Below, piece by piece: positions 16,407 through 51,693 of a stretch of 64,000 nucleotides of DNA. This DNA is from Gemmatimonadota bacterium (GTDB lineage Bacteria > Gemmatimonadota > Gemmatimonadetes > Gemmatimonadales > GWC2-71-9), in the NCBI GenBank assembly GCA_025357945.1, contig JANYLJ010000055.1, forward strand, positions 775 through 64,774. The letters are read 5' to 3'. Below the pieces are notes generated by a model. The model was not told the DNA's origin. It searched no databases and saw nothing but the letters and a program-made list of their open reading frames with translations. How positions within the stretch are numbered: the first letter of the stretch is position 1; every line of letters starts with the position of its first letter. The position numbers and the translations under genes were made by a program.

Positions 16407-17194
16407 AAGTCCTTCTTGTTGAACGTTTTCGCCGCAAAGCAGAGCGGCAGCGCCAGCCACAACGCCAGCGCGGTGATCAACGCGGCGTGACCCGCCGCGG
16501 TGCCCATGGTGTGCTGGACAACGGCACCAGTATACCCAAACAGTGCCGCGGCGTCGGTGCCGAGCAGTAGCAGCACTCGCGCAAGGTCGAGCGGATTGAG
16601 CGCCAGCGCCACGAGCAGCGGCACCTCGATCGCGCGCTCGCCGAACAGCAGCGCCAGCAACAGCACCACGCCGTCCCAGAGCACTGCGGCACCGAGCCAC
16701 AGGGCGAGGGCGATTCCGAGCGCACGCACGCGGTCGTCGACGCGGAGCGCGATCGCGAAGGCCAGCGCCGTGCCCACCAGCGTCAGGAGCGCGGTGACGC
16801 CGCCGAGCGCGAGCAGGCGCAGTCCCAGCGGTCCGATCAGGAGACCATGCCAGACGAAAGGTGCGAGCAGGCCGATCGTCAGCGCCGCCGCCAGCGGCAG
16901 GGCGGTGCCGAGGTAGAGCCCGGCGAACAGGTTGCCGCGGGTGACCGGCTGGGCGAGCAGCAGCTCGGTGACCTCGCGGGCATTGTGCACCTGCATCGTG
17001 CCGACGACGAGCGCCGCCAGCGGCGTGACAATCAGCGCGACGTCGAGCAGCGACACCAGCGTGGTGTCGCCGCCGCCGCCGAAACGGATCAGGAGGTCGC
17101 CCGCGAGCGCGAGTGCCGCGGCGAGGCCGATCAGCCATCGTCCGCGCACCGCCTCGCGGAGTGCCGGGCGGACAAGGCGCAGTGCCACGGTCAT
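16403..17194 (-). CDS. nosY: ABC-type permease NosY
   Basis: Six-TM permease directly following nosF with an ATGA overlap. Its position in the nos cluster supports the call. Confidence 0.75.
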   Translation of the reverse strand: MTVALRLVRPALREAVRGRWLIGLAAALALAGDLLIRFGGGGDTTLVSLLDVALIVTPLAALVVGTMQVHNAREVTELLLAQPVTRGNLFAGLYLGTALPLAAALTIGLLAPFVWHGLLIGPLGLRLLALGGVTALLTLVGTALAFAIALRVDDRVRALGIALALWLGAAVLWDGVVLLLALLFGERAIEVPLLVALALNPLDLARVLLLLGTDAAALFGYTGAVVQHTMGTAAGHAALITALALWLALPLCFAAKTFNKKDF

Positions 17195-17913
17195 GCGACC
17201 GCCAACAGTGCGCCACCGGCAAGCAGCTGCGCCACGGCGCGCTCGAGCGTCGGTTGACCGGTGTGCTTCTTGAGCTGTCCCACCGGACCATGCCACTTCG
17301 CCTCGCCATCGGCGAGGAAGACCACGTCGTCGGCGAGTTCCTCGAGTTCAGGCAGCACGTGCGAGGTGACCAGCACCGTGCACCCTCGGACCCGCTCGGT
17401 GAGCATCCGGTCCTTGAGGATCCGGCTCGCCAGCGGATCGAGGCCGGCGGTCGGCTCGTCGAGCAACAACGTGTTCGGTCGAAAGGCGAACGCCAGCACG
17501 GCGTTGATTTTCTGCCGAGTGCCGCCGCTGAGGGTGCCGAGCGACCGATCCAGGGCGTCGCCAAGGGCGAAGTCCTCGGCCAGGGAGAGGTCGGGTTCCA
17601 CCGTCGCGCCGCGCAGCGCCACCAGCGTCTCAAGCAGTTCGCGCCCGGTCAGGTGTGCCGGAAAGCGGGCGATCTGGGGCATGTAGCCGATCGCGGCGCG
17701 ATAGGCGGGAGCGGGACCGACGCGGTGCCCGTCGACGATGACCTCACCGGTATCGGGACGGGCGAGACCAAGCACCAGTTTGAGCAGCGTCGTCTTGCCC
17801 GCACCGTTGGGTCCCACCAGGCCGGTGATCCGACCGCGGCCAATGTGCAGATCGATCGCGCGCAGCACGCCGCGCTTCCCGAAGGACTTGCCGAGCGCCC
17901 GCGTGACGATCAT
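17191..17913 (-). CDS. nosF: ABC transporter ATP-binding protein NosF
   Basis: Walker A GPNGAGKTT, signature LSGGTRQK and Walker B LLLDEP. It overlaps nosD and nosY. Confidence 0.85.
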   Translation of the reverse strand: MIVTRALGKSFGKRGVLRAIDLHIGRGRITGLVGPNGAGKTTLLKLVLGLARPDTGEVIVDGHRVGPAPAYRAAIGYMPQIARFPAHLTGRELLETLVALRGATVEPDLSLAEDFALGDALDRSLGTLSGGTRQKINAVLAFAFRPNTLLLDEPTAGLDPLASRILKDRMLTERVRGCTVLVTSHVLPELEELADDVVFLADGEAKWHGPVGQLKKHTGQPTLERAVAQLLAGGALLAVA

Positions 17914-19133
17914 CGCGATCCCCGATCGGGCGCGCGCATCAAGGGGTGCGAATCGCTGACACCGGCCGGCGTCAGCACCGGCAGTGCGCGCTCCGCGGCA
18001 TCGAGCATCTTCACGAAAAGCGACCGTTGCAGCAGGAGCACCGGCTCGGCCCGCTCGACCAGCAGCGAAAAGAGCCGCACCGGGTGATAGGGCACGTCAC
18101 CGACGCCGTCGTGATCCAGGTCCCAACCGTGATACCCGTCCCACCAGTTGCCCGAGAACGTCGCGCTGGTCCCGTTGCCGTTGACCGCGACGTCGAACGA
18201 ATTGCGGCGGAACGTGTTGCCGGTGAACTGCGCGGACACCGTGCTGCCGAGCAGCCGCAACGCCCAGCCGTTGTCCTCGAACCGGTTACTCGTCACGAGG
18301 GCACGGTCGGCGCCATCGGCCAGCAGCCCGACGGTGTTGCCGCGGAACGTGTTCGCGAACAGGCGCGCGTCCTGGATCTCCTTGAGCAGGAGGCCGTACG
18401 CCGCCGCACCGCGGTTGGAAATGAAATTATTGCCGGTCATGTCGACCGCCCTGGTGTACATCACCGCCACGCCGCTGCCGTTGGCCCGGAACGTGTTACC
18501 GGTGTACGCCGACGAATCGGAGTACATGAAGTGCATGCCGTAGCGGACGTTGCCTTCGCTGACGTTGTCGCGGACGTCGGCGTGGCGGGTGAACTCGAGA
18601 TAGATCCCATCGCGATGGCCGCTGATCCGGTTGCCGCGGACGACAATGTTGCGGGAGGACCAGAGGTGGACACCGTTGCCGGTGGCGGCTTCGCGGCCTG
18701 GGCGACCAGCGATGACGTTGTCGGCCACCACGCAGTCCTCCGCTGCGGCGAGGTAGATCGCGAAGAACGTGGCGTCGAAGCGGTTGCCGACGATGTGGCA
18801 ATCCTTCGCATCGGCAACGCGAAGTGCCGCGCGATCCTCGGTGTATGCCGTGCCGGTGTTGGTGAACTCCAGCCCGCGCACCGTGACGTGGTCAGCATGC
18901 ACGATCAGCAGTGCGCGTCGCCCCTCGCCGTCGAGGATGGCGCCAGGTTGGCCCTGAAGCGTGAGCGGCCGGTCGACGGTCACGGTCGGTTCGCGATAGC
19001 GGCCGGCGCGCACCATGATGATCGCGCCCGGCGGCGCGGCGGTGACCGCGGCGCCGATCGAGGTGTACGGTCCGGTCGGCGACACGACGAGCGGCGGCCC
19101 CTGAAGGAGCAGGAGCAACATCATCGGGGGCAT
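17910..19133 (-). CDS. nosD: periplasmic parallel beta-helix protein NosD
   Basis: Repeated N-x-I/V-x-x-N beta-helix units (VADNVIAGRPG, VVRGNRISGHRDGIYL, TGNTFRANGSGVAVMY and others). The start is at MPPMMLLLLLQ (19133). Confidence 0.85.
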   Translation of the reverse strand: MPPMMLLLLLQGPPLVVSPTGPYTSIGAAVTAAPPGAIIMVRAGRYREPTVTVDRPLTLQGQPGAILDGEGRRALLIVHADHVTVRGLEFTNTGTAYTEDRAALRVADAKDCHIVGNRFDATFFAIYLAAAEDCVVADNVIAGRPGREAATGNGVHLWSSRNIVVRGNRISGHRDGIYLEFTRHADVRDNVSEGNVRYGMHFMYSDSSAYTGNTFRANGSGVAVMYTRAVDMTGNNFISNRGAAAYGLLLKEIQDARLFANTFRGNTVGLLADGADRALVTSNRFEDNGWALRLLGSTVSAQFTGNTFRRNSFDVAVNGNGTSATFSGNWWDGYHGWDLDHDGVGDVPYHPVRLFSLLVERAEPVLLLQRSLFVKMLDAAERALPVLTPAGVSDSHPLMRAPDRGSR

Positions 19134-19134
19134 A

Positions 19135-19770
19135 TCACGCCTTCGCGGCGGCGACCGCGCGAGGCATGGCATGCGTCGCGCGGACGGCACGGCGCCGCCG
19201 ATGGTTCGTGAGCAGTGCTCCCGTGGCGAGCAGAAACCCGGCGCCCAGGGCGATCGCACCCGTGCCTGGCAGCGATGTGGCGGTGAAGTTGAGTAGTTGC
19301 TTACTGCCGAGGAGCGGTGGTTCGTAGTTCATCCCCGGCACGACAATGATGGCATTCTCGGCATCGAGGTCATGGCCGTACTCATATTCCCAGCGGTGGA
19401 AGTCCCACAGGCCGATCCCGCCGATCAGGGCAAAACCCGCCAGCCACGCGACAACCGACCGGCGCGATCCGCGCCAGGCCGCGGCGATGCCGCCGACCAT
19501 CAACCCGACGACAATCCACGGCATCCAGCGCAACTCCGGGATCGCGTCGGGCAGAATCGGTTTCATGCCGATGTAATGGTTCAATCCGTTGATGCTCTGC
19601 AGGTCGTTGGGCTTGATCCCCACCACGGTGTTCACGTGGATCCGCAGCCCGAGGCCCTCCGGGTACTGCGGCGCAATCAGGCGCACCTCCCAGAGCGGCA
19701 GCAGCAGTGCCCCGCCAACCAGCAGCGATGCCGCCGCCATCAACACGCGCGCCCGGAGCGACATGGTCAC
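19135..19770 (-). CDS. integral membrane protein in the nosB position of clade II nos clusters
   Basis: 211 aa with about 4 TM segments. It lies immediately after nosZ (ATGA overlap) and before nosD. The assignment rests on position only. Confidence 0.5.
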   Translation of the reverse strand: MTMSLRARVLMAAASLLVGGALLLPLWEVRLIAPQYPEGLGLRIHVNTVVGIKPNDLQSINGLNHYIGMKPILPDAIPELRWMPWIVVGLMVGGIAAAWRGSRRSVVAWLAGFALIGGIGLWDFHRWEYEYGHDLDAENAIIVVPGMNYEPPLLGSKQLLNFTATSLPGTGAIALGAGFLLATGALLTNHRRRRAVRATHAMPRAVAAAKA

Positions 19771-21788
19771 CGCATTCCCGTCATCTGGTCATGCCTGGCG
19801 GGCACAACCAGGGCACCCTTGCGCGCTTCCTGCGTCTTGGCGCGCGCCGACATGTTGGCCTTGAGGGGCACGTTGGCACCGGCAGCACTGACCCGGATGT
19901 ACCCCTGCATCTCCTGGTGCAACGCGCTGCAGAAGTCGGTGCAGTAGAACGGGTAGACACCGGCAGCCTGCGGTACCCACTTGAGCGTGCGCGTTTCACC
20001 CGGCAGCAGGATCAGGTTCGCGGTATTCATGCCCAGCACCGCGAATCCGTGCACGATGTCCCAGTCCTGTTCGATGTTGGTGATATGGAAGTACACGGTG
20101 TCGCCCACCAGCACCCCTTCGAGGTTGTCCGGCGTGAAGTGACTGCGCATCGCGATCATCTTGATATGGACCGCCTTGCCCTTCCGCTCGATGCCGCCCT
20201 CGGCTTCCGACCGTGTGACGTACGGATTGCCGTTGTTCGCCAGCGTGAAGAACTTGACCTGCTTGTCCCGGATCATCGCCGCCGGCAGTGCTTGCGCGTA
20301 ATGCGGTTCACCGGTCGTGGGGAAGTCGAGCAGCAGCTTCATCTTGTCGCCGCTGATGTCGATGAGCTGCGCCGATTGCGCCAGCTCGGGCCCGGTCGGC
20401 AGGTAACGGTCCTTGGTGATCTTGTCCAACGCCAGGAGGTACTTGCCCCACGGCTGCTTCGAGTCGCCACCGGGGATCATCAGGTGGCCGATCGAGTAGT
20501 ACACCGGAATCCGGTCCACCACCTCCCAGGTGCCGAGCTTCCACTTCACCACTTCCGACGAAATGAACATCGACGTGTAGGCGTATCCCTTGCCGTCGAA
20601 CTCCGTGTGCAGGGGCCCAAGGCCCGGCTTCTGAACCTCACCCACCATCACGGCTTCGTACTTGAGAATTGGAATGCCCGAGAGCTCGCCGTCGAAGGCC
20701 TTGTCGGCGATCGCCTTCTGCAGCTTGGTGAAGGAGTGCACGGGAATCACGGTGGCGAGTTTGCCGCCGCCGACGATGTACTCACCCGTGGGATCCACAT
20801 CAACGCCATGCGGCGACTTGGGCGTCGGGATGAAGTACACCACACCCGGGCAGTTCGCCGGGTCGAGTATCAGGACGCTCGTCTTCCGCTCACTGGTCGC
20901 AATGCGCGTCCGCTCATCGGTAACATTGTGCAGGTACGCCGACGGCGTGGCCTTGGCCTTGCCGTCCTTGACACACTGCTCGGCGAGCTTCCAGTGCACC
21001 GCGGCGATGAAGTCCTTGTCGTTCTTTGACGCGTTCACCTCGAGCTTGGTGTACGCCTGCTCGGTGTCATAGCTGGTGAAGAAGAACCAGCCGTCGGACG
21101 GGCCCTTCCCGGCATGGCCGAGGTCGTAGTCGTATCCCGGCATCAGGATCTGGAAGGCAATGTCCATCTTGCCCGGCTGGTCGGCCCGGATGAAGGATAT
21201 GGTGCCCTTGAAGCGCGCCTTGAAGTCCTCGATTGGCGTGTCGGTGTTCGGGATCGGGACGGAGAAGCGGGTTGCCGACACGACATACTCCGAGTTGGGT
21301 GTCGTGAACGGCGAGGCATGACCGCCGGCGGAATTGGGGATCTGGATGATCTCGTCGGTCTCGAACCTCGTGAGGTCGATCCGGGCGATCCGGGGCGTGT
21401 TGTTGCCGTTGATGAAGAGCCAGCGTCCGTCGGGCACGCCATTGGTCTGCGACAGTTCCGTGTGATGCGTATCGTCCCATGGGATCTCACCGAACGTGGT
21501 CTGCAGCATCGCCCGGGTTTCCTGGGTGTAGCCGTAGCCGTTCTCGGGGAACTGGGAAAACACCGGAATGATCTTGAGCATGCGTCCGGACGGCAGGCCG
21601 TACACGGAGACGTTGCCGCTGTAGCCGCCCGACAGGAAGGCGTAGAACTCATCGTAGTGGCCGGGAGCAACGTACACCTTGCTCGCCGCGTCACCGCTGA
21701 CGAGTTGCTGGGGCGTCGACGTGCGGCACGCCGCTGCGAACGTGACCGCCAGGAGCGCTGCGATGAATCGGATGGTGCGATACGGCAT
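19767..21788 (-). CDS. nosZ: nitrous-oxide reductase NosZ, Sec-type (clade II-like)
   Basis: Beta-propeller body plus the C-terminal CuA motif CTDFCSALHQEM. The N-terminus MPYRTIRFIAALLAVTFAAAC has no twin-arginine motif. The start is at the ATG at 21788. Confidence 0.92.
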   Translation of the reverse strand: MPYRTIRFIAALLAVTFAAACRTSTPQQLVSGDAASKVYVAPGHYDEFYAFLSGGYSGNVSVYGLPSGRMLKIIPVFSQFPENGYGYTQETRAMLQTTFGEIPWDDTHHTELSQTNGVPDGRWLFINGNNTPRIARIDLTRFETDEIIQIPNSAGGHASPFTTPNSEYVVSATRFSVPIPNTDTPIEDFKARFKGTISFIRADQPGKMDIAFQILMPGYDYDLGHAGKGPSDGWFFFTSYDTEQAYTKLEVNASKNDKDFIAAVHWKLAEQCVKDGKAKATPSAYLHNVTDERTRIATSERKTSVLILDPANCPGVVYFIPTPKSPHGVDVDPTGEYIVGGGKLATVIPVHSFTKLQKAIADKAFDGELSGIPILKYEAVMVGEVQKPGLGPLHTEFDGKGYAYTSMFISSEVVKWKLGTWEVVDRIPVYYSIGHLMIPGGDSKQPWGKYLLALDKITKDRYLPTGPELAQSAQLIDISGDKMKLLLDFPTTGEPHYAQALPAAMIRDKQVKFFTLANNGNPYVTRSEAEGGIERKGKAVHIKMIAMRSHFTPDNLEGVLVGDTVYFHITNIEQDWDIVHGFAVLGMNTANLILLPGETRTLKWVPQAAGVYPFYCTDFCSALHQEMQGYIRVSAAGANVPLKANMSARAKTQEARKGALVVPARHDQMTGMR

Positions 21789-21914
21789 GCCTGCCTCGTG
21801 CGATTGGGCCCTCACGGGGCCAGTTGTGGCGCGGCAACCGGTTTCGCCGCGCACCGTGCCGCACCGCCATCGCGGGGGCACATCACCATTCTCGCTGGTG
21901 CCGCGGTCCGGCAC

Positions 21915-21930
21915 CGTGACGATTGTCACA
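21915..21930 (-). promoter_or_regulatory. candidate Crp/Fnr-family operator (TGTGAC-AATC-GTCACG) upstream of nosZ
   Basis: Perfect 6-4-6 inverted repeat with its centre about 134 nt upstream of the nosZ ATG. The same 16-mer (22-mer with flank) occurs at 40788..40809. Confidence 0.55.
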
Positions 21931-21995
21931 GGAGCTGGCGCCCCAGAGGCACGAGCGAAGATCACCGGCGCCGCATGAAGGCGGGTTGAACACCA

Positions 21996-22013
21996 GATGA
22001 AGCGTTCTTCATC
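21996..22013. terminator. 18-bp perfect palindrome GATGAAG-CGTT-CTTCATC (terminator or operator)
   Basis: It lies 17 nt after the stop of the 4-TM gene (22030) and upstream of the nosZ promoter region. There is no U-tract. Confidence 0.35.
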
Positions 22014-22029
22014 GTTGATCGAGCGCGGG

Positions 22030-22494
22030 TCAGCGCGCCGCGGGCCGGTCGGCCACCCGAAGTGGTCGTGTCGAGATCGTCAGGCGAGACGGCGCGACGG
22101 CAGCGTGATCGAGGGTGCGCCAGAGATTCCATGCCAGCGCGTACGCACCGGCGGCACTGAGCGTTCCACCGGCGCCGAGCAGCCAGGCAGCCACGGTCGC
22201 GGTGTGGAATCGGACGATGAACCCCCCGGCCAGCAAGGCGAGGCCGACGTTCGCGGCGACAAAGTGCCACGACGCGAGGCGCGGACTGTGCAGCGGCGTC
22301 GCCGTGAAGCGCGGCATCACGTGGTACGCCACACCGGCGATCATCATCACGACGAATCCCAGCAGCAGCATGTGCAGGTGCGCGGTGCGGTAGATCGTCC
22401 AGGCCGGGTGGACCGCCATCGCGACGCCGAGGGACACGCCGGCCGCGAGCCATGCGAGCGCAGCACGCAGGAAGCGCACGACGTAGCGCTCCAT
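22030..22494 (-). CDS. small 4-TM membrane protein, paralogue A (AHxH motif, haem-copper oxidase subunit I-like segment)
   Basis: 154 aa from MERYVV. TAHLHMLLLGFVVMMIAGVAYHVMPRF aligns with SAHTHLILVGAMLEAIVGTALWLFPRP of the ORF at 24199..24639. The start overlaps the cupin stop (TAATG). Confidence 0.65.
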   Translation of the reverse strand: MERYVVRFLRAALAWLAAGVSLGVAMAVHPAWTIYRTAHLHMLLLGFVVMMIAGVAYHVMPRFTATPLHSPRLASWHFVAANVGLALLAGGFIVRFHTATVAAWLLGAGGTLSAAGAYALAWNLWRTLDHAAVAPSRLTISTRPLRVADRPAAR

Positions 22495-22817
22495 TAGCAA
22501 TGCTCGCAGCAACTGGCGATGAGTTCGACCCGGAGCTCGAGACCGCGGTCCCCGGCGACGACGGAGTGCTCGACGTCGGGGTCGATCTGCACGACCGCGC
22601 CACGAGGGAGGACTCGCATCCCGTCTCCGGCGATCGCGATGTCACCGCTACCGGCCACCGCGGTGATCACGACCCGCGCCGGGTTGCGGTGCGGCGGCAG
22701 CCGTTGACCAGGCTCGAATCGGACCGTGAAATGGCGGCCATGCGCTCCGTGCTCAATCTCGGAAACAACTGGCCGGTGCGTGATCGGTAGCTCGGGGGGA
22801 GAAGATGGTGACGCCAT
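22494..22817 (-). CDS. cupin-domain protein with Cys-rich C-terminus (CCEHC)
   Basis: 107 aa from MASPSS. The cupin motifs are GQRLPPHRNPARVVITAVAGSG and PRGAVVQIDPDVEHSV. Confidence 0.65.
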   Translation of the reverse strand: MASPSSPPELPITHRPVVSEIEHGAHGRHFTVRFEPGQRLPPHRNPARVVITAVAGSGDIAIAGDGMRVLPRGAVVQIDPDVEHSVVAGDRGLELRVELIASCCEHC

Positions 22818-22870
22818 GGGCACTCCTCGAATCGGGTCACTGGATGATGCGGCCACGTATCGTCCCCTGC

Positions 22871-22886
22871 TGTGACGCTTGTCACG
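22871..22886 (+). promoter_or_regulatory. candidate Crp/Fnr-family operator (TGTGAC-GCTT-GTCACG) in the divergent cupin/crp promoter region
   Basis: The 6-mer arms are identical to the nosZ and NMO sites. It lies 54 nt from the cupin ATG and about 36 nt before the regulator ATG. Confidence 0.55.
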
Positions 22887-22914
22887 CCGGGCCCTTCGGG
22901 GGTTGATTGGCAGG

Positions 22915-23610
22915 ATGGGCGCCTTTACCGCAGTGCTCCGCGCCGTGCCGATCTTCGACGGGCTCGGCGACGCCGTGCTGGAGCGGCTCGCCGCCCGTTG
23001 CGTTCCGCGCGCCGTGGGAGAGGGATTCATGCTCTTCCGCGCTGGCGAACGGTGCGCCGGGCTGTACGTCGTGCTCGAAGGGCGCGTCCGGATCTACCGG
23101 ACGTCGCCGGATGGCCGGGAACAGACGATCGCCGTGGAAGGTCCCGGCCGGCCGGTGGCCGAGTTGCCACTCGTCGATGATGGTCCCTATCCAGCGAGCG
23201 CGGTCACCACGGTGCCAAGCCGGCTGATCTTTCTGCCGCGCGCGGAGTTCGAGCATGCGTTTCGCACCGATCCCGACGTGGCCGCGGCCGTCGTGCGGGC
23301 GCTCGGCGCGCGGTTGCGGCACATGGTGCAGCTGGTGGAGACACTCGCTTTCCGCGATGTCGCCGCGCGGCTCGCGATGCTGCTGGCCGACCACGCCGAG
23401 CGGCACGGCCGGGTGGGAGGCGACGGCGTCGTGCTGGATCTCGACCGCACGCAGGAGGAGTTGGCGGCCGAGATCGGTACGGCCCGGGAATCGGTGTCGC
23501 GGGCGCTAAAGCAGTTGAAGGCGCACGGCTTGATCAGGAAGCGAACCGGGATGCACTTGCTGCTGGCACCGGCGGAACAACTGCGCGCGTGGGCGCGCGG
23601 CGGTGGATGA
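22915..23610 (+). CDS. Crp/Fnr-family transcriptional regulator (no FNR-type Cys cluster)
   Basis: cNMP-binding-like N-terminal domain (VPIFDGLGDAVLERLA...LFRAGE) and a C-terminal HTH (ELAAEIGTARESVSRALKQL). The start is taken at the ATG at 22915; the ORF is open from the TTG at 22879. Confidence 0.85.
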   Translation: MGAFTAVLRAVPIFDGLGDAVLERLAARCVPRAVGEGFMLFRAGERCAGLYVVLEGRVRIYRTSPDGREQTIAVEGPGRPVAELPLVDDGPYPASAVTTVPSRLIFLPRAEFEHAFRTDPDVAAAVVRALGARLRHMVQLVETLAFRDVAARLAMLLADHAERHGRVGGDGVVLDLDRTQEELAAEIGTARESVSRALKQLKAHGLIRKRTGMHLLLAPAEQLRAWARGGG

Positions 23611-24197
23611 GACATGCGTCACGGCGCGTCGGGTCGCCGACCGGCGATGTTGGCCAAGTGACCACACCTGGCGATAGCGGCACGGACTCGCTGCCCGACT
23701 TCGATCCCGCAGTCCTCACCGACCTCGACGTGCGCGACGACTTGCGCTCAGGGCGCGAGCCGTTGGCGCGCATTCTTGCCGTAGCCGAGGCCCTCCCGGC
23801 GGCGGGCGTGTTGCACCTGCGCACACCGTTCCAGCCGGCGCCACTTTTCTACGTATTGTCGCAGCGGGGGTTCGCATACCACAGCGAGGCATTTGCCGCC
23901 GATGACTGGTCGTCGTGGTTCTGGCGCAGTGAGTCACCGCCGGCGCCGGCCCCGCCGGTGAGTGCGCTGGCGGCCGCGTTGGCGCCGGCGGGCGTGATCG
24001 ACCTGAGGCACTTGCCGCCGCCGGAACCGCTGGTGGCGATTCTGGCGCGGATCACCCGCGATGACGCGCCGTTCGAGGTGATGCTCCCGTTCGATCCACC
24101 GATCCTCGACGTGATGCTGGCGCAGCAGGGATGGCGGGTTGAGCGGATCGGCACGAGCGCTGACAGTGCGCGCCTGAGGATCGTGCGCGAGCAGTGA
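23607..24197 (+). CDS. protein with two tandem DUF2249-like domains
   Basis: LDVRDDLRSGREPLARILAVAEALPAAGVLHLRTPFQPAPLFYVL and IDLRHLPPPEPLVAILARITRDDAPFEVMLPFDPPIL match the pattern I recall for DUF2249. ATGA overlap with the regulator gene. Confidence 0.6.
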   Translation: MRHASRRVGSPTGDVGQVTTPGDSGTDSLPDFDPAVLTDLDVRDDLRSGREPLARILAVAEALPAAGVLHLRTPFQPAPLFYVLSQRGFAYHSEAFAADDWSSWFWRSESPPAPAPPVSALAAALAPAGVIDLRHLPPPEPLVAILARITRDDAPFEVMLPFDPPILDVMLAQQGWRVERIGTSADSARLRIVREQ

Positions 24198-24198
24198 C

Positions 24199-24639
24199 AT
24201 GCCCCCACTGAGTCGCCGCTTCCTCGCGACCGCCGCCGGCTGCCTCCTGGCCGGGATCGGCCTGGGCTTCGTGATGTTGCTGCAACGCGAGTTCGGTGGC
24301 CACGGGTCTGGCCCGCTCGTCGTATCCGCCCACACGCACCTGATCCTCGTGGGTGCCATGCTCGAGGCGATCGTCGGCACGGCACTCTGGCTCTTCCCGC
24401 GCCCGGTGCGCGGACAGTGGCAGGCACCGCCGTGGCTCGGTGAACTCGCATGGGCAACGCTCACGGTCGGCACCGTTATGCGCGCGATCGCTGAAATCCT
24501 GCACGGTTCGCACGACGGTGGTATCGTACGTATCGCGATCGCGGCCGGTGCTGGGTTGCAGGTTGTCGGCGTCGTCACAGCGGTGATCGTGCTGCAGCCG
24601 AGGGTGCGGGCGTCGGTGACGCGCCCGGGGCCTGCGTGA
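24199..24639 (+). CDS. small 4-TM membrane protein, paralogue B (AHxH motif)
   Basis: 146 aa, starting 1 nt after the DUF2249 stop. It is homologous along its length to 22030..22494. Confidence 0.65.
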   Translation: MPPLSRRFLATAAGCLLAGIGLGFVMLLQREFGGHGSGPLVVSAHTHLILVGAMLEAIVGTALWLFPRPVRGQWQAPPWLGELAWATLTVGTVMRAIAEILHGSHDGGIVRIAIAAGAGLQVVGVVTAVIVLQPRVRASVTRPGPA

Positions 24640-24735: not shown

Positions 24736-25740
24736 GTGTTTCGTCGAATTCCGCTGCTGCTACTGCTCGCGGCCTGCCAGACTCGATCGTCCGTTCCGAC
24801 GCAGTCACAGGCCATTCCACCGACGACGTCGCCGGCATCGATGTCTCATGGTGAGGCCAAGGTCGATAACCCCGCGGTGCCGCTGGGCCGCGCGGCCGAC
24901 GCCCCGCCGCGTAGCACGATACGGGCGCACCAGATCCGCTTGCGCTCGGTGCATGTCGCGCACCTCGTGGCGCCGGGCGTCGTGTTCGAGGCGTGGACGT
25001 TCGACAGCACCGTACCCGGACCCGTGGTGCGCGTCACGGTTGGCGACACGGTGCACTTCACGCTCATCAATGGCGCACCGATCCCGCACTCCATGGACTT
25101 CCATGCGGCCGAACTCGCGCCGAGTCGGGCCTATGTCAATGTCATGCCGAAGGATTCGATCCATTTCAGCTTCGTGGCGCGGGTGCCGGGGGTATTCATG
25201 TATCACTGCGGGACCGCACCAGCCGCATTGCACATTGCCAGTGGGATGTACGGCGCCCTGATCGTCGATCCGGTGATCCCGCGCCCGCCCGCCCGCGAGT
25301 TCGTGCTGGTGCAGAGCGAGTTCTACTTCGCGCCGACGCACGACTCTGCCGGGCCACGGTCGCTCGGCTGGCAGAAGATGCTCGACCTCGCGCCGGACTA
25401 CGTCGTCTTCAACGGCGTGTACGCCCAGTACGCCGCGCACCCGATACCGGTGGAACCTGGCGAGTTGATCCGGTTCTACGTGGTCGACGCCGGGCCGAAC
25501 CGCGTGTCCTCGTTCCATGTGGTCGGCGCGATCTTTCAGCGGGTGTTTGTCGACGGCAACGGACCGCCGCAACTTGGCGTGCAAACGGTCAGCGTGCCGG
25601 TGGGTGGCGGGATGATCTTCGAGACCCGGCTGGCCGAGCCGGGTCTCTACCCGTTCGTCTCGCATTCGTTCGCGGATGCGACCAAGGGAGCGGTGGGCGT
25701 GCTGCGCGCCGGAAATCCGGCGGGAAGCGCTAGCCATTGA
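24736..25740 (+). CDS. nirK: copper-containing nitrite reductase-like two-domain cupredoxin protein (NirK-like), lipoprotein
   Basis: HSMDFHAAE (T1 His, catalytic Asp, T2 His), MYHCGTAPAALHIASGMYG (T2 His-T1 Cys...His...Met) and a second-domain His in SSFHVVG. Lipobox LLLLAACQ. GTG start preceded by AAGGAG. Confidence 0.7.
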   Translation: MFRRIPLLLLLAACQTRSSVPTQSQAIPPTTSPASMSHGEAKVDNPAVPLGRAADAPPRSTIRAHQIRLRSVHVAHLVAPGVVFEAWTFDSTVPGPVVRVTVGDTVHFTLINGAPIPHSMDFHAAELAPSRAYVNVMPKDSIHFSFVARVPGVFMYHCGTAPAALHIASGMYGALIVDPVIPRPPAREFVLVQSEFYFAPTHDSAGPRSLGWQKMLDLAPDYVVFNGVYAQYAAHPIPVEPGELIRFYVVDAGPNRVSSFHVVGAIFQRVFVDGNGPPQLGVQTVSVPVGGGMIFETRLAEPGLYPFVSHSFADATKGAVGVLRAGNPAGSASH

Positions 25741-29698: not shown

Positions 29699-29834
29699 TT
29701 TCAGGCCGCCGTCCATGGTCCGCCGGCCAGCGAACATCGCCCCCGGCACGGCATGACCCCTGTCGGCGATTCCCCGACAAGGATGCCACCATCTTGCCGA
29801 CAGACAGTACCGGTGTCGCGGTCTAGCTTGACGC

Positions 29835-30851
29835 ATGTCTCAGACCGCAACCACCTTGGTACCGCGCCACTGGCGCGCCTGGCAGCACCCGCTGTTCTGG
29901 AAAATGCTGGGCGCCGACCTGTTGCTGATCGGCTTCACGGCGATTGCATTTCCCGCGCGGACCGGCGAACGGTTGGTCCTGATGATCGCGGCAATCGTTC
30001 TGGTCAGCCTGGTGCTAAACGTCGCGCTGACCCCGTCTGCACTGCGACCGTTGCACGTCGCACGAGGTACTGCCCAGCGCCTGGCAGCAGGGCTGGCCAA
30101 CGCCAGCCTGGAACGGCCCGTGGCCGCCGGCGCGGTTCAGCCGATCGATGACCTGCTGAACGACGTCGCGACACGGCTTGAAGCAGATCGCGCCCGCGCG
30201 CTCACGTTGATCCGGCGGAGTCTCCATGCGCACGAGGCGGAGCGGGAAGCCATCGCCAGGGAACTCCGGGATGCCGGTGCGCAGCAATTGGCGGCGCTCA
30301 CGTTGCAACTCACCGCCGCCGTCCAGGAGAACCAGGATCCGAAGGTCGCGCTGCCATTGGCCGCCGCCAAGGACCTGGCCGTACAGGCAGCGAATGAGAT
30401 TTCAGCCCTGGCCGAGCGGATCGCTCCCGGGTTGCGTGGCGAATTCGGTCTCGCAGCAGGGCTGGACGGGTTGCGGCGCCGCGTCACGCGCCACAGCGCG
30501 CTTGACTTCACGCTCGACGTCCGGGGCGCGCCTTTCCCGCTGCCGTTGCCGCTGACTCGGGCTCTCCTGCGGGTAGCCGAGGAGGCTGTCGAAAATGTCG
30601 AGTGTCACGCTGGCGCACGGTCCGTCACCGTCGACCTGTCGTTTACCCGCCCGATTGTTCGGCTCGAAATCTCGGATGACGCCAACGGTTTCGACCTGGC
30701 CGTTCTGGATCAAGCTCACGGCGGACTCGGCCTGTTCCGGGCCAGGGAGCTTCTCGCACATGAAGGCGGGAAGATGCAGATTGAGTCCGCGCCGGGGTGC
30801 GGGACGCGGGTGCTTGCGACGGTCGATGCGTCTCATGGAGCCACATCATGA
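29835..30851 (+). CDS. HisKA_3-type sensor kinase homologue with degenerate H-box (His replaced by Arg)
   Basis: Two TM segments. The dimerisation box reads EREAIARELRDAGAQQL where the family has ...ARELHD.... The N, D and G boxes are intact (EEAVENVECHAGA, DDANGF, GGLGL). Confidence 0.75.
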   Translation: MSQTATTLVPRHWRAWQHPLFWKMLGADLLLIGFTAIAFPARTGERLVLMIAAIVLVSLVLNVALTPSALRPLHVARGTAQRLAAGLANASLERPVAAGAVQPIDDLLNDVATRLEADRARALTLIRRSLHAHEAEREAIARELRDAGAQQLAALTLQLTAAVQENQDPKVALPLAAAKDLAVQAANEISALAERIAPGLRGEFGLAAGLDGLRRRVTRHSALDFTLDVRGAPFPLPLPLTRALLRVAEEAVENVECHAGARSVTVDLSFTRPIVRLEISDDANGFDLAVLDQAHGGLGLFRARELLAHEGGKMQIESAPGCGTRVLATVDASHGATS

Positions 30852-31510
30852 TCAATGACGTCATCAGCGTTGTTCTGGCTGACGATCACGCCGTGGTCCG
30901 GACGGGCCTGAAGGCGGTGCTCAGCACGGCCAAGGATATGCGCGTCATCGGCGAGGCGTCCAACGGCGCGGAGGCGATCGCGATGGTCAGGCGGCTCGAC
31001 CCCGACGTACTCGTCATGGACCTGTCGATGCCGCAAATGGACGGCGTGGAAGCGACCCGGCAGCTCGCCGCCGAATCCATCCGCACCCGGATCCTGATTC
31101 TTACCATGCATCCGCCGGACGAGGCACTGATCCCGCTCGTCGAGCTGGGGATCGCGGGCTTCCTGCAGAAGACCGCCGCGGACCGCGAACTCGTCGACGC
31201 GGTGCGCGCGGCGGCGTTCGGCGACACCTACCTCCAACCGGCGGCGGCGCGCGTGCTGGCCAACGGAATGCGCAAGCGCGCCGAACACGCCGATGAACGC
31301 TCGGGGTTCGATCGGCTGACGCCGCGGGAACGTGACGTGCTCCGGCTGATCGCGCAAGGATTTTCCGCGCCGGAGATTGGCACGCGGCTTACCATCAGCC
31401 CGAAGACGGTCGAGACGTACAAGCAACGGATTCACGAGAAGCTTGGTCTCACGCACCGGTCCGAATACGTCCAGTACGCCCTCAAGCTCGGCTTGCTGAC
31501 CCAGGACTAG
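30848..31510 (+). CDS. NarL/LuxR-family response regulator
   Basis: Receiver domain (VVLADDH...DVLVMDLSMPQMDG) plus a LuxR-type HTH (LTPRERDVLRLIAQGFSAPEIGTRLTISPKTVETYKQRI). ATGA overlap with the kinase gene. Confidence 0.9.
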   Translation: MINDVISVVLADDHAVVRTGLKAVLSTAKDMRVIGEASNGAEAIAMVRRLDPDVLVMDLSMPQMDGVEATRQLAAESIRTRILILTMHPPDEALIPLVELGIAGFLQKTAADRELVDAVRAAAFGDTYLQPAAARVLANGMRKRAEHADERSGFDRLTPRERDVLRLIAQGFSAPEIGTRLTISPKTVETYKQRIHEKLGLTHRSEYVQYALKLGLLTQD

Positions 31511-40787: not shown

Positions 40788-40803
40788 TGTGACAATCGTC
40801 ACG
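40788..40803 (+). promoter_or_regulatory. candidate Crp/Fnr-family operator (TGTGAC-AATC-GTCACG) upstream of the NMO-like gene
   Basis: It sits in the 49-nt gap after the decarboxylase stop, with its centre about 31 nt before the ATG at 40827. The 22 nt at 40788..40809 are identical to 21930..21909 read on the minus strand. Confidence 0.55.
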
Positions 40804-40826
40804 GTGCCGCGGCGGCTGCCACCGCC

Positions 40827-42281
40827 ATGATGCGACGAACCTTGAAGGGGAGCGTCCCGATCGCAATCTCCACCGCTCCACTGCCGCTGATCGTCCAGGG
40901 CGGCATGGGTGTCGCCGTCTCCGACTGGCGCCTCGCCCGCGCCGTGTCGCGCCGGGGACAGCTGGGCGTCGTTTCGGGAACCGGTCTCGACACCGTGTTC
41001 GTACGGCGACTGCAGGACGGCGATCACGATGGTGCGCTTCGTCGCGCCATGGACGCATTCCCGATGCCGGGTGTCGCAGCGCGCGCAATCGCGCGATACT
41101 TCCGGCCACGCGGCCGGGCGAGCGACGAGCCGTACCAGCTGCTGCCGATGTACCGGCGAGCGGCGAGCAAGGAGCGCGAAGCGCTCACGATGCTCGCCGC
41201 GTTCTGCGAGGTGTATCTCGCCCGGGAGGGCCATCAAGGATCGGTCGGGATCAACCTGCTCACCAAGGTGCAGCGGCCGAATCTCGCAACCCTGTATGGC
41301 GCCATGCTCGCCGGCGTGGGCTACGTGCTGATGGGTGCCGGCATTCCGCGCGAGATCCCCGCGGTCCTCGATGCCCTGACGCATCACTGCACCGCATCGC
41401 TGCGACTGGACGCCGTGGGGCTCCCGCCGGGCGCGGCGCCCGAGATCACGCTCAACCCGGCCGATTACTGGCGCGATCCGCCGGCGCTCGAGCGGCCCAG
41501 GTTTCTCCCGATCGTCGCGAGCAACTCGCTGGCGGCGATGTTGGCGCACAAGCTGGGCGCGGGCGTCGACGGTTTCGTGATCGAGGGTCCGACGGCCGGC
41601 GGCCACAATGCGCCGCCCCGCGGTACCCCCCAGTTCAACACCCGCGGCGAACCCGTGTACGGATCGCGCGACGACGTCGATCTCGCCCGCATCCGCGAGC
41701 TCGGCCTGCCCTTCTGGCTGGCGGGCGGGATGGGGCATCCGGAGCAGCTGCGCCGCGCCCGGGCCGACGGCGCAGCAGGCATTCAGGTCGGGACGCTGTT
41801 CGCGTTCTGCGATGAATCCGGGGTGACGGCCGACCTCAAGCAGTCCGTCCTGGCCAGTGCAGCACGCGGCGCGGTAGACGTGATTACCGATCCACTGGCC
41901 TCACCAACGGGCTATCCGTTCAAGGTCGTCGACTGGAGCGGCGCCCCGGTAGCGCAGAAATCGCGTGAGCGCATCTGCGACATGGGCTACCTGCGCGTCG
42001 CGTACGTGCGGCCGGACGGCGGGATCGGCTATCGCTGCGCCGCGGAACCAGTGGACGCGTATGTGGCGAAAGGCGGCGACGTCAACGACACCGTGGGTCG
42101 CCGTTGCCTGTGTAACGCGTTGATGGCGAACGTCGGCCTGGCGCAGTTACGTGAGCATGGTCAACACGAACCGCCCCTGCTCACCAGCGGTGACGACCTC
42201 AGGACGATTGCCGATTTTCTGCATGGGCGCACCCACTACTCCGCCGATGATGTCATTGACTACCTCCTAGCCGAATCATGA
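40827..42281 (+). CDS. nitronate monooxygenase / 2-nitropropane dioxygenase-family FMN enzyme (long form)
   Basis: LIVQGGMGVAVS and GFVIEGPTAGGHNAP, followed by FWLAGGMG. The start is at the ATG at 40827 (MMRRTLKG). Confidence 0.75.
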   Translation: MMRRTLKGSVPIAISTAPLPLIVQGGMGVAVSDWRLARAVSRRGQLGVVSGTGLDTVFVRRLQDGDHDGALRRAMDAFPMPGVAARAIARYFRPRGRASDEPYQLLPMYRRAASKEREALTMLAAFCEVYLAREGHQGSVGINLLTKVQRPNLATLYGAMLAGVGYVLMGAGIPREIPAVLDALTHHCTASLRLDAVGLPPGAAPEITLNPADYWRDPPALERPRFLPIVASNSLAAMLAHKLGAGVDGFVIEGPTAGGHNAPPRGTPQFNTRGEPVYGSRDDVDLARIRELGLPFWLAGGMGHPEQLRRARADGAAGIQVGTLFAFCDESGVTADLKQSVLASAARGAVDVITDPLASPTGYPFKVVDWSGAPVAQKSRERICDMGYLRVAYVRPDGGIGYRCAAEPVDAYVAKGGDVNDTVGRRCLCNALMANVGLAQLREHGQHEPPLLTSGDDLRTIADFLHGRTHYSADDVIDYLLAES

Positions 42282-44116
42282 TCCGGCGCACCGCGCCCAC
42301 CACCATGCTGCTTCGCGTCGGCGCCGCCGCAGCGTTCCTCGCCGTCGGCGCCGCGGTACGATTTGGCGGGCACGACCCGGTTACGGCCGACGCGATCTGG
42401 CGGTGGGGACTGGGACTGCTCGGCGGGATCGTGGTGGTGCGCACGCTTATCAGCGTCGCCGCCGGACGCCTTGCCGCGGACGTCATCGCGTCCTTCGCGA
42501 TCATCGGCGCATTCGCGCTCGACCAATCGTTCGCGGGCCTCGTCATCGTCGTGATGCAGACGGGCGGCGAAGCACTGGAGCTCATCGCCGAAGGGCGTGC
42601 GTCACGTGCGCTACGCGACCTCGAAAAGGCAGCGCCGCGCTGGGCCCACCGGCTACATGACGACGCGGTGACGGACATCACGGTCGACACGATCATCGTC
42701 GGCGACATGCTGCTCGTCCGGCCGGGCGAGATGATCCCGTGCGACGCGACCGTGACCGCCGGGCAGTCACACGTCGACGCATCGACGCTGACCGGAGAAC
42801 CGGTCCCCGTCAGTACCCGACCCGGCGTGCGGCTCATGAGCGGAGCACTCAACCTCGAGGGTCCGCTGACGCTACGGGCAACGGCGCTGGCGGCGGAAAG
42901 TCAGTATCACCGGATCGTCGAGCTGGTCCGCAGTGCCCAGGCGAGCAAAGCGCCGCTCCAACGACTGGCCGATCGTTACGCGATCTGGTTCACGCCACTC
43001 ACCCTCGCCATTTGCGTCGGGACCTTCCTGGTGGCGCGGGATCCGGTGCGGGTCCTCGCCGTCCTGGTCGTGGCGACGCCGTGTCCACTCATTCTCGCCA
43101 CACCAATCGCGATCGTCGCCGGGATCAACCAGATGGCGAAACGTCATGTCGTGATCCGTCGCGGCAGCGCGCTCGAACAGATGGGACACGTCACCACCGT
43201 GGTATTCGACAAGACCGGCACGTTGACCCTCGGCCGGCCGCAGGTCGCGAAGGTCACGCCGGCAACGGGGCGGGATACCGCCGACGTCCTCCGCCTTGCC
43301 GCCGCGGTGGAGCAGGGTTCCGGGCACCTGCTCGCGCGCACCCTGGTCGAGGCGGCGGCGCGCGGCGGGCTGCCATCACCACCGGCGGAGGACGTCGTGG
43401 AAACGCCCGGCGCGGGCGTCACCGGTCGGGTGGAAGGGCGCACGGTTCGCGTCGGCGCACTCAGTTACATCACCGCAACGCAGCCGGCGTTGAGCGCGGA
43501 GTTCCTGAAGTTGTCCGGCGACAGCCTCGGGTTGCGCGCTTTTGTCGCGATCGACGGGCACGCCGCGGCTGTTGTCGACTACGCCGATCGTCCGCGCACC
43601 GGCATGTCGCGCTTTCTCGACCGCCTGCGCCACGCCGGCGTCCGGCGCATTCTGGTCGTGAGCGGGGACGCCCAGGCGAACGTCGATGCGATTGCCGACG
43701 CGATCGGCATCGACGAGGCCCACGGCGACCTGCTCCCGGAGGACAAGGTGGCGGTGATCGAGACGCTGATGCGAAACGGTGAACACGTGATCATGCTGGG
43801 CGACGGCACCAACGACGCGCCGGCGCTGAGCGCGGCAACGGTCGGCGTCGCGCTATCGGTGGGCGGCAGCGGTATCACCGCGGAGGCGGCGGACGCCGTC
43901 ATCCTCGGCGATGATCCGTCACGACTCGCGGATGCCATTGAAATCAGCCGGCGCACCATGCGTATCGCGCGGCAGAGCATCTGGGGCGGTCTGGTGCTCA
44001 GCGGCATCGCGATCGGGTTCGCCATGTTCGGGATGATCCCGCCGGCGGTTGGCGCGATCCTGCAGGAAACCATCGATGTCGCGGTGATCGTCAATGCGCT
44101 GCGGGCGGCGCGGTAG
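42278..44116 (+). CDS. heavy-metal P1B-type ATPase with a TPCP transmembrane motif, no N-terminal metal-binding domain
   Basis: Motifs DKTGTLT, GDGTNDAP and TGE (LTGEP), plus the TM motif VVATPCPLILATP (PCP instead of CPC). ATGA overlap with the NMO-like gene. Confidence 0.85.
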   Translation: MIRRTAPTTMLLRVGAAAAFLAVGAAVRFGGHDPVTADAIWRWGLGLLGGIVVVRTLISVAAGRLAADVIASFAIIGAFALDQSFAGLVIVVMQTGGEALELIAEGRASRALRDLEKAAPRWAHRLHDDAVTDITVDTIIVGDMLLVRPGEMIPCDATVTAGQSHVDASTLTGEPVPVSTRPGVRLMSGALNLEGPLTLRATALAAESQYHRIVELVRSAQASKAPLQRLADRYAIWFTPLTLAICVGTFLVARDPVRVLAVLVVATPCPLILATPIAIVAGINQMAKRHVVIRRGSALEQMGHVTTVVFDKTGTLTLGRPQVAKVTPATGRDTADVLRLAAAVEQGSGHLLARTLVEAAARGGLPSPPAEDVVETPGAGVTGRVEGRTVRVGALSYITATQPALSAEFLKLSGDSLGLRAFVAIDGHAAAVVDYADRPRTGMSRFLDRLRHAGVRRILVVSGDAQANVDAIADAIGIDEAHGDLLPEDKVAVIETLMRNGEHVIMLGDGTNDAPALSAATVGVALSVGGSGITAEAADAVILGDDPSRLADAIEISRRTMRIARQSIWGGLVLSGIAIGFAMFGMIPPAVGAILQETIDVAVIVNALRAAR

Positions 44117-44307
44117 GTCGCGCCAAGCCCTTGACGTCCCGACCCCGATCATGAAAATCAGATGAAGAGACCTTTATCCGACGGCAATTACCGCTTTGGA
44201 TTTGTATATGTACGGAGCGTAATATTGCGTAGTTCCGCGTCGGGCTCCCACCCCGCACGCTGTCATTGGATCGTCGTGCCAGACCTGACGAGAAGGGGGC
44301 ATCCAGT

Positions 44308-45903: not shown

Positions 45904-45913
45904 GTTCTCCAGG

Positions 45914-50873: not shown

Positions 50874-50886
50874 GCGAGCGCCAGCC

Positions 50887-51693
50887 TCAGGGAGCCGAAG
50901 CGGCGTCCCGGAACTTCTCCAGCATCGCGCGGTGCTGGGCGTATTCGGGCCGGTTCGTCCGGGCCATCTCCACGGCGAAGTTGGCACGGAACGCCTTGCT
51001 TGCTGCGCGCGCGCCCACCAAGTCGCCCTGCGCCTGCGCGACGCTGGCCCGGAGGTAGTAGCCGAAGAGATGGTCTGGTGACGCCGCCATGATCGTGTCG
51101 GCCAGTGCCTTGACCTCCGGATACTGCGCCGCGAACAGGTGCAGCCAACCCATATGAAACCGGGCGTCCGCGTCACGATCGGCCGCCAGCAGATTCTGGT
51201 ACGCGCCTGACGCCATCGGCCAGAAGCGCGTGACCATCGCGGTGTCGCCGCGCTCGGCCGCCGCCGTCACGCGGTCGACGAGCCGGCTGAACTGTTCCTT
51301 CGGTGTCATGTTCGAGATGTCCGGCGCGACCGTGCCACCGGCACCAGCGTTTCCGGCGTTCGCCATCGCCGGTGCGGTCACCTCCCCACGGCGGTTCGCC
51401 GAATAGACCACCGCGGTGATCGCAATGACCGCGAGCACACCGGCCACGATCCAGGGTACGCGTTGCCCCGACACTGACGTGATGCCGGTCGCGGCATGAC
51501 TCGCCGATGCCGAAGTGGATGTGGGCAACGTGCTCGACGCACCGCACTTGTGGCAGAACTTCGCGCCGGCGGAGAGCACCGCGCCGCAGGAGGCACAAGG
51601 ATGTTCGCCCAGCGGCGCACCGCACGTCGCGCAGAAATTGCCGTTCGCAGGCGCACCGCAGCGGGGACATGCCTTCGCGGAGTCGGTGGCCAC
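50887..51693 (-). CDS. double zinc-ribbon membrane protein with helical-repeat C-terminal domain
   Basis: CPRCGAPANGNFCATCGAPLGEHPCASCGAVLSAGAKFCHKCG, then one TM segment (VPWIVAGVLAVIAITAVVY), then a TPR-like helical region. Confidence 0.65.
   Translation of the reverse strand: MATDSAKACPRCGAPANGNFCATCGAPLGEHPCASCGAVLSAGAKFCHKCGASSTLPTSTSASASHAATGITSVSGQRVPWIVAGVLAVIAITAVVYSANRRGEVTAPAMANAGNAGAGGTVAPDISNMTPKEQFSRLVDRVTAAAERGDTAMVTRFWPMASGAYQNLLAADRDADARFHMGWLHLFAAQYPEVKALADTIMAASPDHLFGYYLRASVAQAQGDLVGARAASKAFRANFAVEMARTNRPEYAQHRAMLEKFRDAASAP

Follow-up and report, generated by a model that had tools for sequence, protein, structure and literature searches.

Control of denitrification by transcription factors of the Crp/Fnr family is well established, as for FNR, DNR, NnrR, Nss and DnrT, and Gemmatimonadota, which carry the clade II form of the nitrous-oxide reductase gene nosZ, are considered important sinks for N2O, a greenhouse gas, in soil. 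Little is understood of how clade II nosZ is regulated. Here, we describe a nosZ-nirK locus in a stretch of 64,000 nucleotides (nt) from a Gemmatimonadota contig (JANYLJ010000055.1, positions 775 to 64,774; hereafter the window), in which a 16-bp palindrome, TGTGAC-N4-GTCAC(G/A), stands upstream of nosZ and around a nearby gene for a Crp/Fnr-family regulator (coordinates in Table 1). We consider it likely that this palindrome is the operator of that regulator, which would act as a Class II activator of nosZ, nirK and a few other operons. Within the literature searched, no nosZ or nirK regulators of Gemmatimonadota were found, and the only clade II nosZ regulator found was Nss of Campylobacterota, which is associated with TTGA-N6-TCAA boxes (PMC11539149).

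Among plasmid-database sequences, the best matches of the regulator are genes on Thermus megaplasmids. The homologue in Thermus JL-18 follows a GAF-domain gene (DnrS) and is divergent from narCGHJI; because these neighbors fit and the gene ends match published dnrT primers, we identify this homologue as DnrT, the CRP-family master activator of denitrification in Thermus. DnrT has been shown to activate its own operon, nar, nrc and drpAB, the last encoding the DUF2249 proteins DrpA and DrpB, and is reported to be insensitive to O2 and nitrate (PMC6282519, PMC5748679). The window regulator is 36% identical to DnrT of Thermus thermophilus over its full length (E 2e-32) and shares with it the pattern VEGPGR..AE....P.YPASA, in which P-x-YPASA replaces the phosphate-binding cassette for cyclic nucleotide monophosphates (cNMP); a DUF2249 gene is also linked to the regulator here, with an operator between the two. 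In contrast, the recognition helix reads PEAVSR in DnrT and RESVSR in the window regulator, and no TGTGA-N6-TCACA box with up to two mismatches occurs in 18.6 kb around Thermus dnrT and nar, the Thermus promoters bearing a TTGACC-NN-GGTCA-type element instead. The DNA specificities of the two proteins therefore differ, as the correlation between helix and box discussed below predicts. The window regulator further lacks an adjacent DnrS-like GAF partner, and its putative targets are nirK and clade II nosZ, whereas those of DnrT are nar and nrc.

The best matches among solved structures are the actinobacterial CRP/GlxR proteins, namely CRP of Mycobacterium tuberculosis (Mtb CRP, Rv3676; E 4e-29) and 4byy (E 8e-24), which we take to be GlxR of Corynebacterium glutamicum. 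Mtb CRP, GlxR and Escherichia coli CRP have the R-E-x-x-x-R helix in common with the window regulator, and all three proteins bind TGTGA-N6-TCACA operators and make use of Class II promoters. Unlike in these proteins, the phosphate-binding Arg/Ser pair (R82/S83 in CRP) is replaced in the window regulator, and its proposed regulon is a local one for denitrification rather than a global one for carbon. Desulfovibrio HcpR, compared here by description, is likewise a Crp/Fnr-family N-oxide regulator with a CRP-like box (wTGTGAnnnnnnTCACAw) instead of an FNR-like one, which agrees with the R180/E181 correlation taken up below (PMC1274295), but it targets hcp and frdX, not nirK and nosZ; HcpR is reported to depend on heme in Porphyromonas (PMC12750200). 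DNR, NnrR and Nss (Pseudomonas, rhizobia, Wolinella, Nitrosophilus) resemble the present system in that a Crp/Fnr regulator adjoins nir/nos genes, but they belong to different phyla and use FNR-type TTGA-N6-TCAA boxes, and DNR is a far weaker match to the window regulator (E 1e-15).

The original prediction, made from the letters of the window alone, had pointed to a 22-mer, TGTGACAATCGTCACGGTGCCG, repeated verbatim on opposite strands, with one copy at 21909-21930 (minus) and the other at 40788-40809 (plus). Exactly these two copies are present, with no further match in the window at up to three mismatches and none in 100 dinucleotide-preserving shuffles (0 expected), and both read toward the downstream gene, nosZ in one case and an NMO-like gene in the other, as had been claimed. 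The two regions are not similar beyond these 22 nt: their flanks, 70 nt to each side, aligned locally no better than shuffles did. The core, TGTGAC AATC GTCACG, had been called a perfect 6-4-6 inverted repeat with TGTGA/TCACA half-sites; its CRP-type TGTGA-N6-TCACA geometry stands, but the final base departs from perfect symmetry. The distance first given between the core and the nosZ start codon, about 134 nt, agrees with our measurement of 134.5 nt (centre 21922.5; ATG at 21788, not 21789). At nosZ sites the AAYC spacer is constrained, whereas the 6-nt extension GTGCCG at the nosZ flank is found only in the window and one other contig (L081), reads GTGCCC in L097, and is not kept at other sites. 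We take the functional unit to be the 16-bp palindrome, not the 22-mer, and the verbatim identity over 22 nt therefore reflects a constrained 16-mer plus six flanking bases. These six bases most likely arose through a short copying event or by chance, rather than as part of a longer functional element; a chance origin is estimated at roughly 1e-3, and the data favour neither.

Other classes of element were considered for the 22-mer and rejected. A longer repeat or mobile element was discounted, as similarity ends at 22 nt and the repeat search gave no further copies, and an RNA element likewise, as Rfam searches were empty both in 21600-23000 (E up to 1) and in the whole window (gathering thresholds); a tRNA scan found no tRNAs. 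A terminator hairpin was also rejected, terminator-like sites being absent from 21700-23800. Near-matches that agree with the operator consensus at 10 of 12 positions lie inside multiheme cytochrome genes (L105), where they follow from the coding of CxxCH motifs, and none of these false positives reaches the score threshold used below.

A position weight matrix (PWM) trained solely on sites of other genomes yielded six hits of at least 15 bits in the window, against 0.27 expected, and all six fell between genes or at gene boundaries, a class of DNA that accounts for about 10% of the gene-called stretch. The possibility raised at the outset, that the motif might be no more common than CxxCH-coding or random matches, is opposed by this excess and by the subthreshold scores of the CxxCH near-matches. 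The strongest hits are the cores of the two 22-mer copies, site A upstream of nosZ and the NMO operator. Site B, an exact TGTGAC-N4-GTCACG, lies where the cupin and regulator genes diverge, and the first three bases of site C are the TGA stop codon of the regulator gene. The proposal of a shared operator serving a small regulon was supported, but it had overlooked these two strong copies flanking the regulator gene (22871, 23608). A weaker candidate, which has 14 nt in common with site C, lies between a PAS-GAF histidine kinase gene and divergent genes for a HisKA_3 kinase and NarL-type regulator. As stated previously, the region upstream of nosZ holds no TTGAT-N4-ATCAA box; matches with one mismatch occur in the window only at 14790 and 61300. 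Between atpH and atpA, an AT-rich patch holds a perfect CRP consensus, TGTGAAAATAGTCACA, at 61436-61451, with 51.5 nt separating it from the atpA ATG downstream; the regulon PWM gives it 16 bits, and it could be a site for the window regulator or for another CRP-like factor.

The spacing of the sites from their downstream genes points to a particular promoter type. At each of the 41 gene-facing sites, the 16-mer is followed, at an offset of 21 or 22 nt, by a hexamer of the form xAxxxT; none starts at offsets 14-20 and few at 23-29. Such a hexamer stands at offset 21 or 22 in one of 24 away-facing sites and at 5% of random positions. Taking this hexamer as the -10 element places the site centre at -41.5 or -42.5, as in the Class II promoters of CRP and FNR, where the activator is bound near -41.5. 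A promoter scan found no full sigma-70 -35/-10 promoter at these sites, and none would be expected because the promoters would depend on an activator. From this geometry we infer Class II activator-dependent promoters, with predicted transcription starts; that of nosZ would lie near 21881, so that the nosZ leader would measure about 93 nt, that of the cupin gene near 22837 and that of the NMO gene near 40838, while leaderless transcripts of the regulator and DUF2249 genes would begin at 22915 and 23658. On the regulator side of site B, the order [TA]T[GC]ATT, 5-6 nt, ATG is found in the window, L081, L082, L086, L097 and L101, and the hexamer in question (TTGATT in the window) is likely the -10 element of a leaderless regulator transcript. 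Such a transcript would place site B at about -36.5, which suggests autoregulation, probably by repression. The DUF2249 start codon that was called in L097 and L099 comes exactly 6 nt past the hexamer; GTG 23658 of the window fits this spacing, which implies leaderless DUF2249 mRNAs.

The sites recur at the same positions in related genomes. A regulator search of metagenome contigs returned five orthologous loci, and further contigs were found through protein clusters; gene order was examined in ten contigs, comprising five in which the regulator adjoins nosZ or nirK, three partial cassettes (L083, L084, L086), and two with sites but no regulator gene (L001, L035). Read outward from nosZ, site A is followed by small membrane genes and a cupin gene, all transcribed toward nosZ, and then by site B, the divergent regulator gene with site C on its stop codon, the DUF2249 gene and nirK. 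Around the regulator gene, about 13 contigs keep the 16-mer at three fixed positions, amid flanking DNA that is unalignable. Contigs found through protein clusters extend the full arrangement to L097/L098 and L105, and reduced forms without nosZ nearby, both with site C, run regulator-DUF2249-nirK (L099) and regulator-nirK-cupin (L101). Since L099 and L101 retain the regulator and nirK without nosZ, the conserved core linkage is with nirK. Upstream of nosZ, the 16-mer of site A or an AAYC-spacer variant was found in L001, L009, L012, L026, L027, L029, L035, L044, L081, L097 and L105; the position of site B is conserved in L027, L029, L044, L081, L082, L086, L097, L101 and L105; and site C is kept, overlapping the stop codon, in 12 other contigs. 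The variant of the site follows its target, with TGTGACAAYCGTCACG at nosZ and TGAGAC(A/T)T(C/G)CGTCAC(G/A) at the DUF2249 operon; the G and A of the half-site pattern xGxGAC are invariant.

Within the wider lineage, the system is restricted. We scanned 80 related nosZ loci (961 kb) with a PWM built without them and found strong sites in only eight: L001, L009, L012, L026, L027, L029, L035 and L044. The regulator adjoins nosZ in three of these (L027, L029, L044), all of which carry all three sites, and L001 is too short to show whether a regulator is present. A check suggested in the original prediction, whether the site is kept upstream of orthologous nosZ genes, thus has a divided outcome: it is kept in the sub-lineage using this system, but not beyond it. 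As only eight of the 80 Gemmatimonadota nosZ loci use the system, control of nosZ differs between close relatives. L009, L012 and L026 each carry a back-to-back pair of sites, of which one faces an ApbC/oxidase-like/DUF1858-DUF2249x2 operon and the other faces DUF59-nosZ, so that a DUF59 gene intervenes between site and nosZ. This alternative locus type (L026 3068-6800; also L009, L012 and L035), in which the gene preceding nosZ encodes a DUF59 (Fe-S assembly-type) protein, has a divergent operon for an ApbC/Mrp-like ATPase, a heme-copper-oxidase-like membrane protein of about 480 amino acids, and a protein with one DUF1858 and two DUF2249 domains, whose domain order equals that of Thermus DrpB.

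The second copy of the 22-mer lies between a gene for a pyridoxal-phosphate-dependent decarboxylase and the NMO-family gene, and it is also present in L103, from the same species. In L105, which has a regulator 79% identical to that of the window, a site with a different spacer and flank, TGTGACAACGGTCACG, stands at the same decarboxylase-NMO junction. The NMO site is missing from L097 (87% identical), where the decarboxylase and NMO genes overlap and about 90 nt that hold the site in the window are lacking; in L104 and L106 the NMO gene stands in different surroundings, with no site. The presence of the NMO site in the window, L103 and L105 but not in L097 makes the NMO operon a variable member of the putative regulon.

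The protein assigned here to these sites belongs, as predicted originally, to the Crp/Fnr family. Its N-terminal part is a beta-barrel of the cNMP-binding type (PF00027, E 5.9e-22, residues 47-130 of a longer open reading frame), its C-terminal part is a Crp-type helix-turn-helix (PF13545, E 1.7e-15, plus PF00325), and it aligns over its full length with Mtb CRP; no other Crp/Fnr gene was found in the window. The recognition helix was correctly read as R-E-S-V-S-R: within TARESVSRALK, RESVSR aligns with RETVGR (R180/E181/R185) of E. coli CRP, the sequence used for the latter aligning as expected for a CRP. In a published correlation, R180/E181 are tied to the G and A of TGTGA (PMC1274295), and judged by this alignment the window regulator has a helix of the type that reads TGTGA. 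Across a set of 120 orthologues of at least 70% identity, all generically named and all from Gemmatimonadota where named, the helix GTARESVSRALK, the segment PVAELPL.D.GPYPASA, and residues C29, C47, H114 and H136 are essentially invariant. The phosphate-binding Arg82/Ser83 are absent (GPYPASA, where Mtb CRP has GPRTSSA and E. coli CRP has GQERSAW), and because the phosphate-binding Arg is missing, cyclic AMP (cAMP) or other cyclic nucleotides are unlikely as effector. The regulator reaches none of the NCBIfam equivalog cut-offs, scoring 67.6 bits against the CRP model PRK11753 (cut-off 266) and, at best, 94.7 against FtrB (cut-off 211). It also differs from FNR, having only two conserved Cys (C29, C47) and not the N-terminal Cys cluster of a [4Fe-4S] centre, Arg instead of Val at position 180, and no FNR box near its putative targets.

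We propose that a dimer of the regulator binds the palindrome, its R-E-x-x-x-R helices reading the GTGA half-sites. At the nosZ, cupin/COX1-like, DUF2249-nirK and NMO promoters, where 21-22 bp separate the site from a -10-like hexamer downstream and an apparent -35 element is missing, this spacing would make the regulator a Class II activator bound near -41.5, and on its own side of site B, at about -36.5, it would regulate itself, probably as a repressor. The effector would not be cAMP; gene content (nirK, nosZ) and kinship with DnrT point to denitrifying or low-oxygen conditions as the signal, which the co-encoded DUF2249 protein possibly relays. The regulon would probably comprise nosZ, the cupin/COX1-like operon, the regulator, DUF2249-nirK and, in some lineages, the NMO operon. 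Such a mechanism, a Crp-family Class II activator with matching helix and box, is ordinary textbook regulation; it has not been described before for Gemmatimonadota. The locus offers a regulator-operator-promoter model made up of a 16-bp site, predicted transcription starts, and co-regulated nirK, DUF2249 protein, NMO-family enzyme and P1B ATPase, and it links the control of nosZ and nirK to the DnrT/DUF2249 system of Thermus. A more far-reaching idea, and one that we hold only tentatively, is that the regulator and the DUF2249 protein encoded directly after it, with nothing but the stop-codon operator between their genes, form a conserved two-part switch homologous to DnrT/DrpAB. In such a switch, a CRP-clade protein that has lost nucleotide sensing would be controlled by its own abundance and its DUF2249 partner, and the two together would govern nirK and clade II nosZ as the master switch of a soil lineage of Gemmatimonadota; if true, nosZ would gain its first defined regulator-operator pair in this phylum.

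Several observations weigh against activation of these operons by the adjacent regulator. Site B is absent from L099, and in L009, L012, L026 and L035 there are sites but no regulator gene within 7 kb, so that its presence in those genomes is assumed. Many of the contigs come from related metagenome-assembled genomes, and the counts given above are therefore not independent events. At the weak site beside the PAS-GAF kinase gene, the best -10 element (TACTGT) lies at offset 17, not 21. The predicted NMO -10 element overlaps the annotated ATG in both the window (40827, 40830) and L105, and the true NMO start may therefore be TTG 40842, with which the N-terminus of the L104 protein (MSGSDPIPVST) aligns; an error must lie here in the start codon or in the promoter model, with ATG 40827/40830 and TTG 40842 all candidates. 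Another CRP paralogue with the same helix, encoded elsewhere in the genome, could also share the sites.

Taken further, this last point would mean that the sites are real but bound by a different CRP-family protein, such as a global cAMP-CRP that shares the R-E...R helix, and that the adjacent regulator is merely one of its targets. The four site-bearing nosZ loci without an adjacent regulator would fit such a binder, as would the perfect TGTGA-N6-TCACA between atpH and atpA, an unlikely denitrification target that hints at a second CRP-like factor. Even so, we think this improbable, given that the sites bracket the regulator gene in each contig carrying it, with one on its stop codon, that the window has no other Crp/Fnr gene, and that the regulator-nirK linkage survives together with site C where nosZ is gone. 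About equally improbable, in our judgment, is that the adjacent regulator binds the sites but mainly represses, occluding promoters until released under denitrifying conditions. Repression of some operons is known for Thermus DnrT (PMC5748679), and both the site at about -36.5 on the regulator's own side and the NMO site, 31.5-34.5 nt from the annotated ATG, could be read in this way; however, a repressor would need no rigid phasing, and the distance of 21-22 nt to a -10-like hexamer without a -35 element, found at every gene-facing site, is a signature of Class II activation. Lastly, the 22-mer might be a chance repeat or a mobile fragment, akin to repetitive extragenic palindromes (REP-like), with no regulatory role. 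It has just two copies, one of them in the stretch of about 90 nt missing from the close relative L097, but shuffled sequences never produced it, the similarity is confined to 22 nt, and the core is kept at orthologous positions in diverged genomes with a fixed promoter geometry, all of which makes this origin very hard to credit. Activation by the adjacent regulator is thus the reading we prefer.

Table 1. Operator sites, predicted promoter hexamers and genes of the nosZ-nirK locus and the NMO operon, in window positions.
Feature	Positions	Strand or placement	Evidence or remark
Site A (16-mer of 22-mer copy 1), TGTGACAATCGTCACG	21915-21930	minus, toward nosZ	PWM 28.0 bits
Site B, TGTGACGCTTGTCACG	22871-22886	97-nt cupin-regulator gap, genes divergent	PWM 23.2 bits
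Site C, TGAGACATGCGTCACG	23608-23623	plus, facing DUF2249-nirK	PWM 26.4 bits
NMO operator (in 22-mer copy 2)	40788-40803	plus, upstream of NMO-like gene	PWM 28.0 bits
Weaker candidate site, TGAGACATGCGTCAAG	29827-29842	minus	PWM 19.9 bits
Predicted nosZ -10 hexamer, GAGAAT	21888-21893	minus	21 nt after site A
Predicted cupin/COX1-like operon -10 hexamer, CATCAT	22844-22849	minus	21 nt after site B
Conserved hexamer, TTGATT	22903-22908	plus	16 nt after site B, 6 nt before regulator ATG
Predicted DUF2249 -10 hexamer, GATGTT	23646-23651	plus	22 nt after site C, 6 nt before GTG 23658
Predicted NMO -10 hexamer, CATGAT	40826-40831	plus	22 nt after site
nosF	17191-17913	minus, after nosD	Pfam ABC_tran
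nosD	17910-19259	minus, after nosZ	Pfam NosD
nosZ, Sec-dependent (clade II) nitrous-oxide reductase	19767-21788	minus	TIGR04246 933.5 bits vs cut-off 625; Pfam nos_propeller
Small membrane-protein gene, heme-copper oxidase subunit I homology	22030-22494/22512	minus, toward nosZ	partial ccoN/COX1 matches; synteny
Cupin gene	22494-22817	minus, toward nosZ	Pfam Cupin_2; synteny
Crp/Fnr-family regulator, 231 amino acids	22915-23610	plus	PF00027 + PF13545
DUF2249 protein	23658-24197	plus	PF10006
COX1-like small membrane protein	24199-24639	plus	COX1-like homology; gene call in L107
nirK-like copper nitrite reductase homologue	24736-25740	plus	TIGR02376 175.6 bits, below cut-off 296
NMO-family flavoprotein	40827-42281	plus	PF03060
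P1B-type heavy-metal ATPase	42278-44116	plus	E1-E2_ATPase; TIGR01525

The nearest relatives of nosZ are in metagenome-assembled genomes of Gemmatimonadaceae (66-87% identity), and the NosZ N-terminus, MPYRTIRFIAALLAVTFAAAC, looks like a signal peptide of the lipoprotein type. In the nosZ leader (minus strand; 21807-21821 and 21855-21881), a GC hairpin, GGCCCCGTGAGGGCC, directly before the nosZ ribosome-binding site is also present in L001, L027 and L029 and absent from operator-less nosZ loci, and a second block, GTGCCCCCGCGATGGCGGTGCGGCACG, is kept in L081, L097 and L105. For the whole nosZ leader, the predicted fold does no better than those of shuffled sequences (z -0.91), and Rfam gave no match.

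The two-component genes next to the weaker candidate site, encoding a HisKA_3 histidine kinase and a NarL/LuxR-type response regulator (29835-31510), adjoin the denitrification genes and are divergent from the PAS-GAF kinase gene; the annotated ATG of the kinase at 29835-31510 falls inside that site. The P1B-type ATPase of the NMO operon has TPC instead of CPC in its transmembrane metal site (residue 267), and Pfam finds no N-terminal metal-binding domain in it. Multiheme cytochrome genes follow the ATPase gene, and the same gene order is found in L105. The direct-repeat families at 44266-51000 (e.g., ...TGCGCCGCGTGCCACG, CTGCCTCACCTGTCA) are CxxCH heme-binding motifs of multiheme cytochrome genes and are not regulatory; they account for the near-matches to the operator consensus at 10 of 12 positions mentioned above.

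Two further repeats lie elsewhere in the window. At 56193-56386, an intergenic 72-nt inverted repeat, whose arms are 79% complementary and 50 nt apart and for which Rfam gave no match, is made of small hairpins with CTAAAG loops (gtcactaaagtgac, gtcgctaaagcgac, gcggctttagccgc). At 58805-58934, the 7-nt tandem repeat CTCGTCT (58874-58929) stands opposite an inverted purine-rich stretch, GAGAGAGGAGAGACG (58805-58838), the two being 91% complementary over 32 nt.

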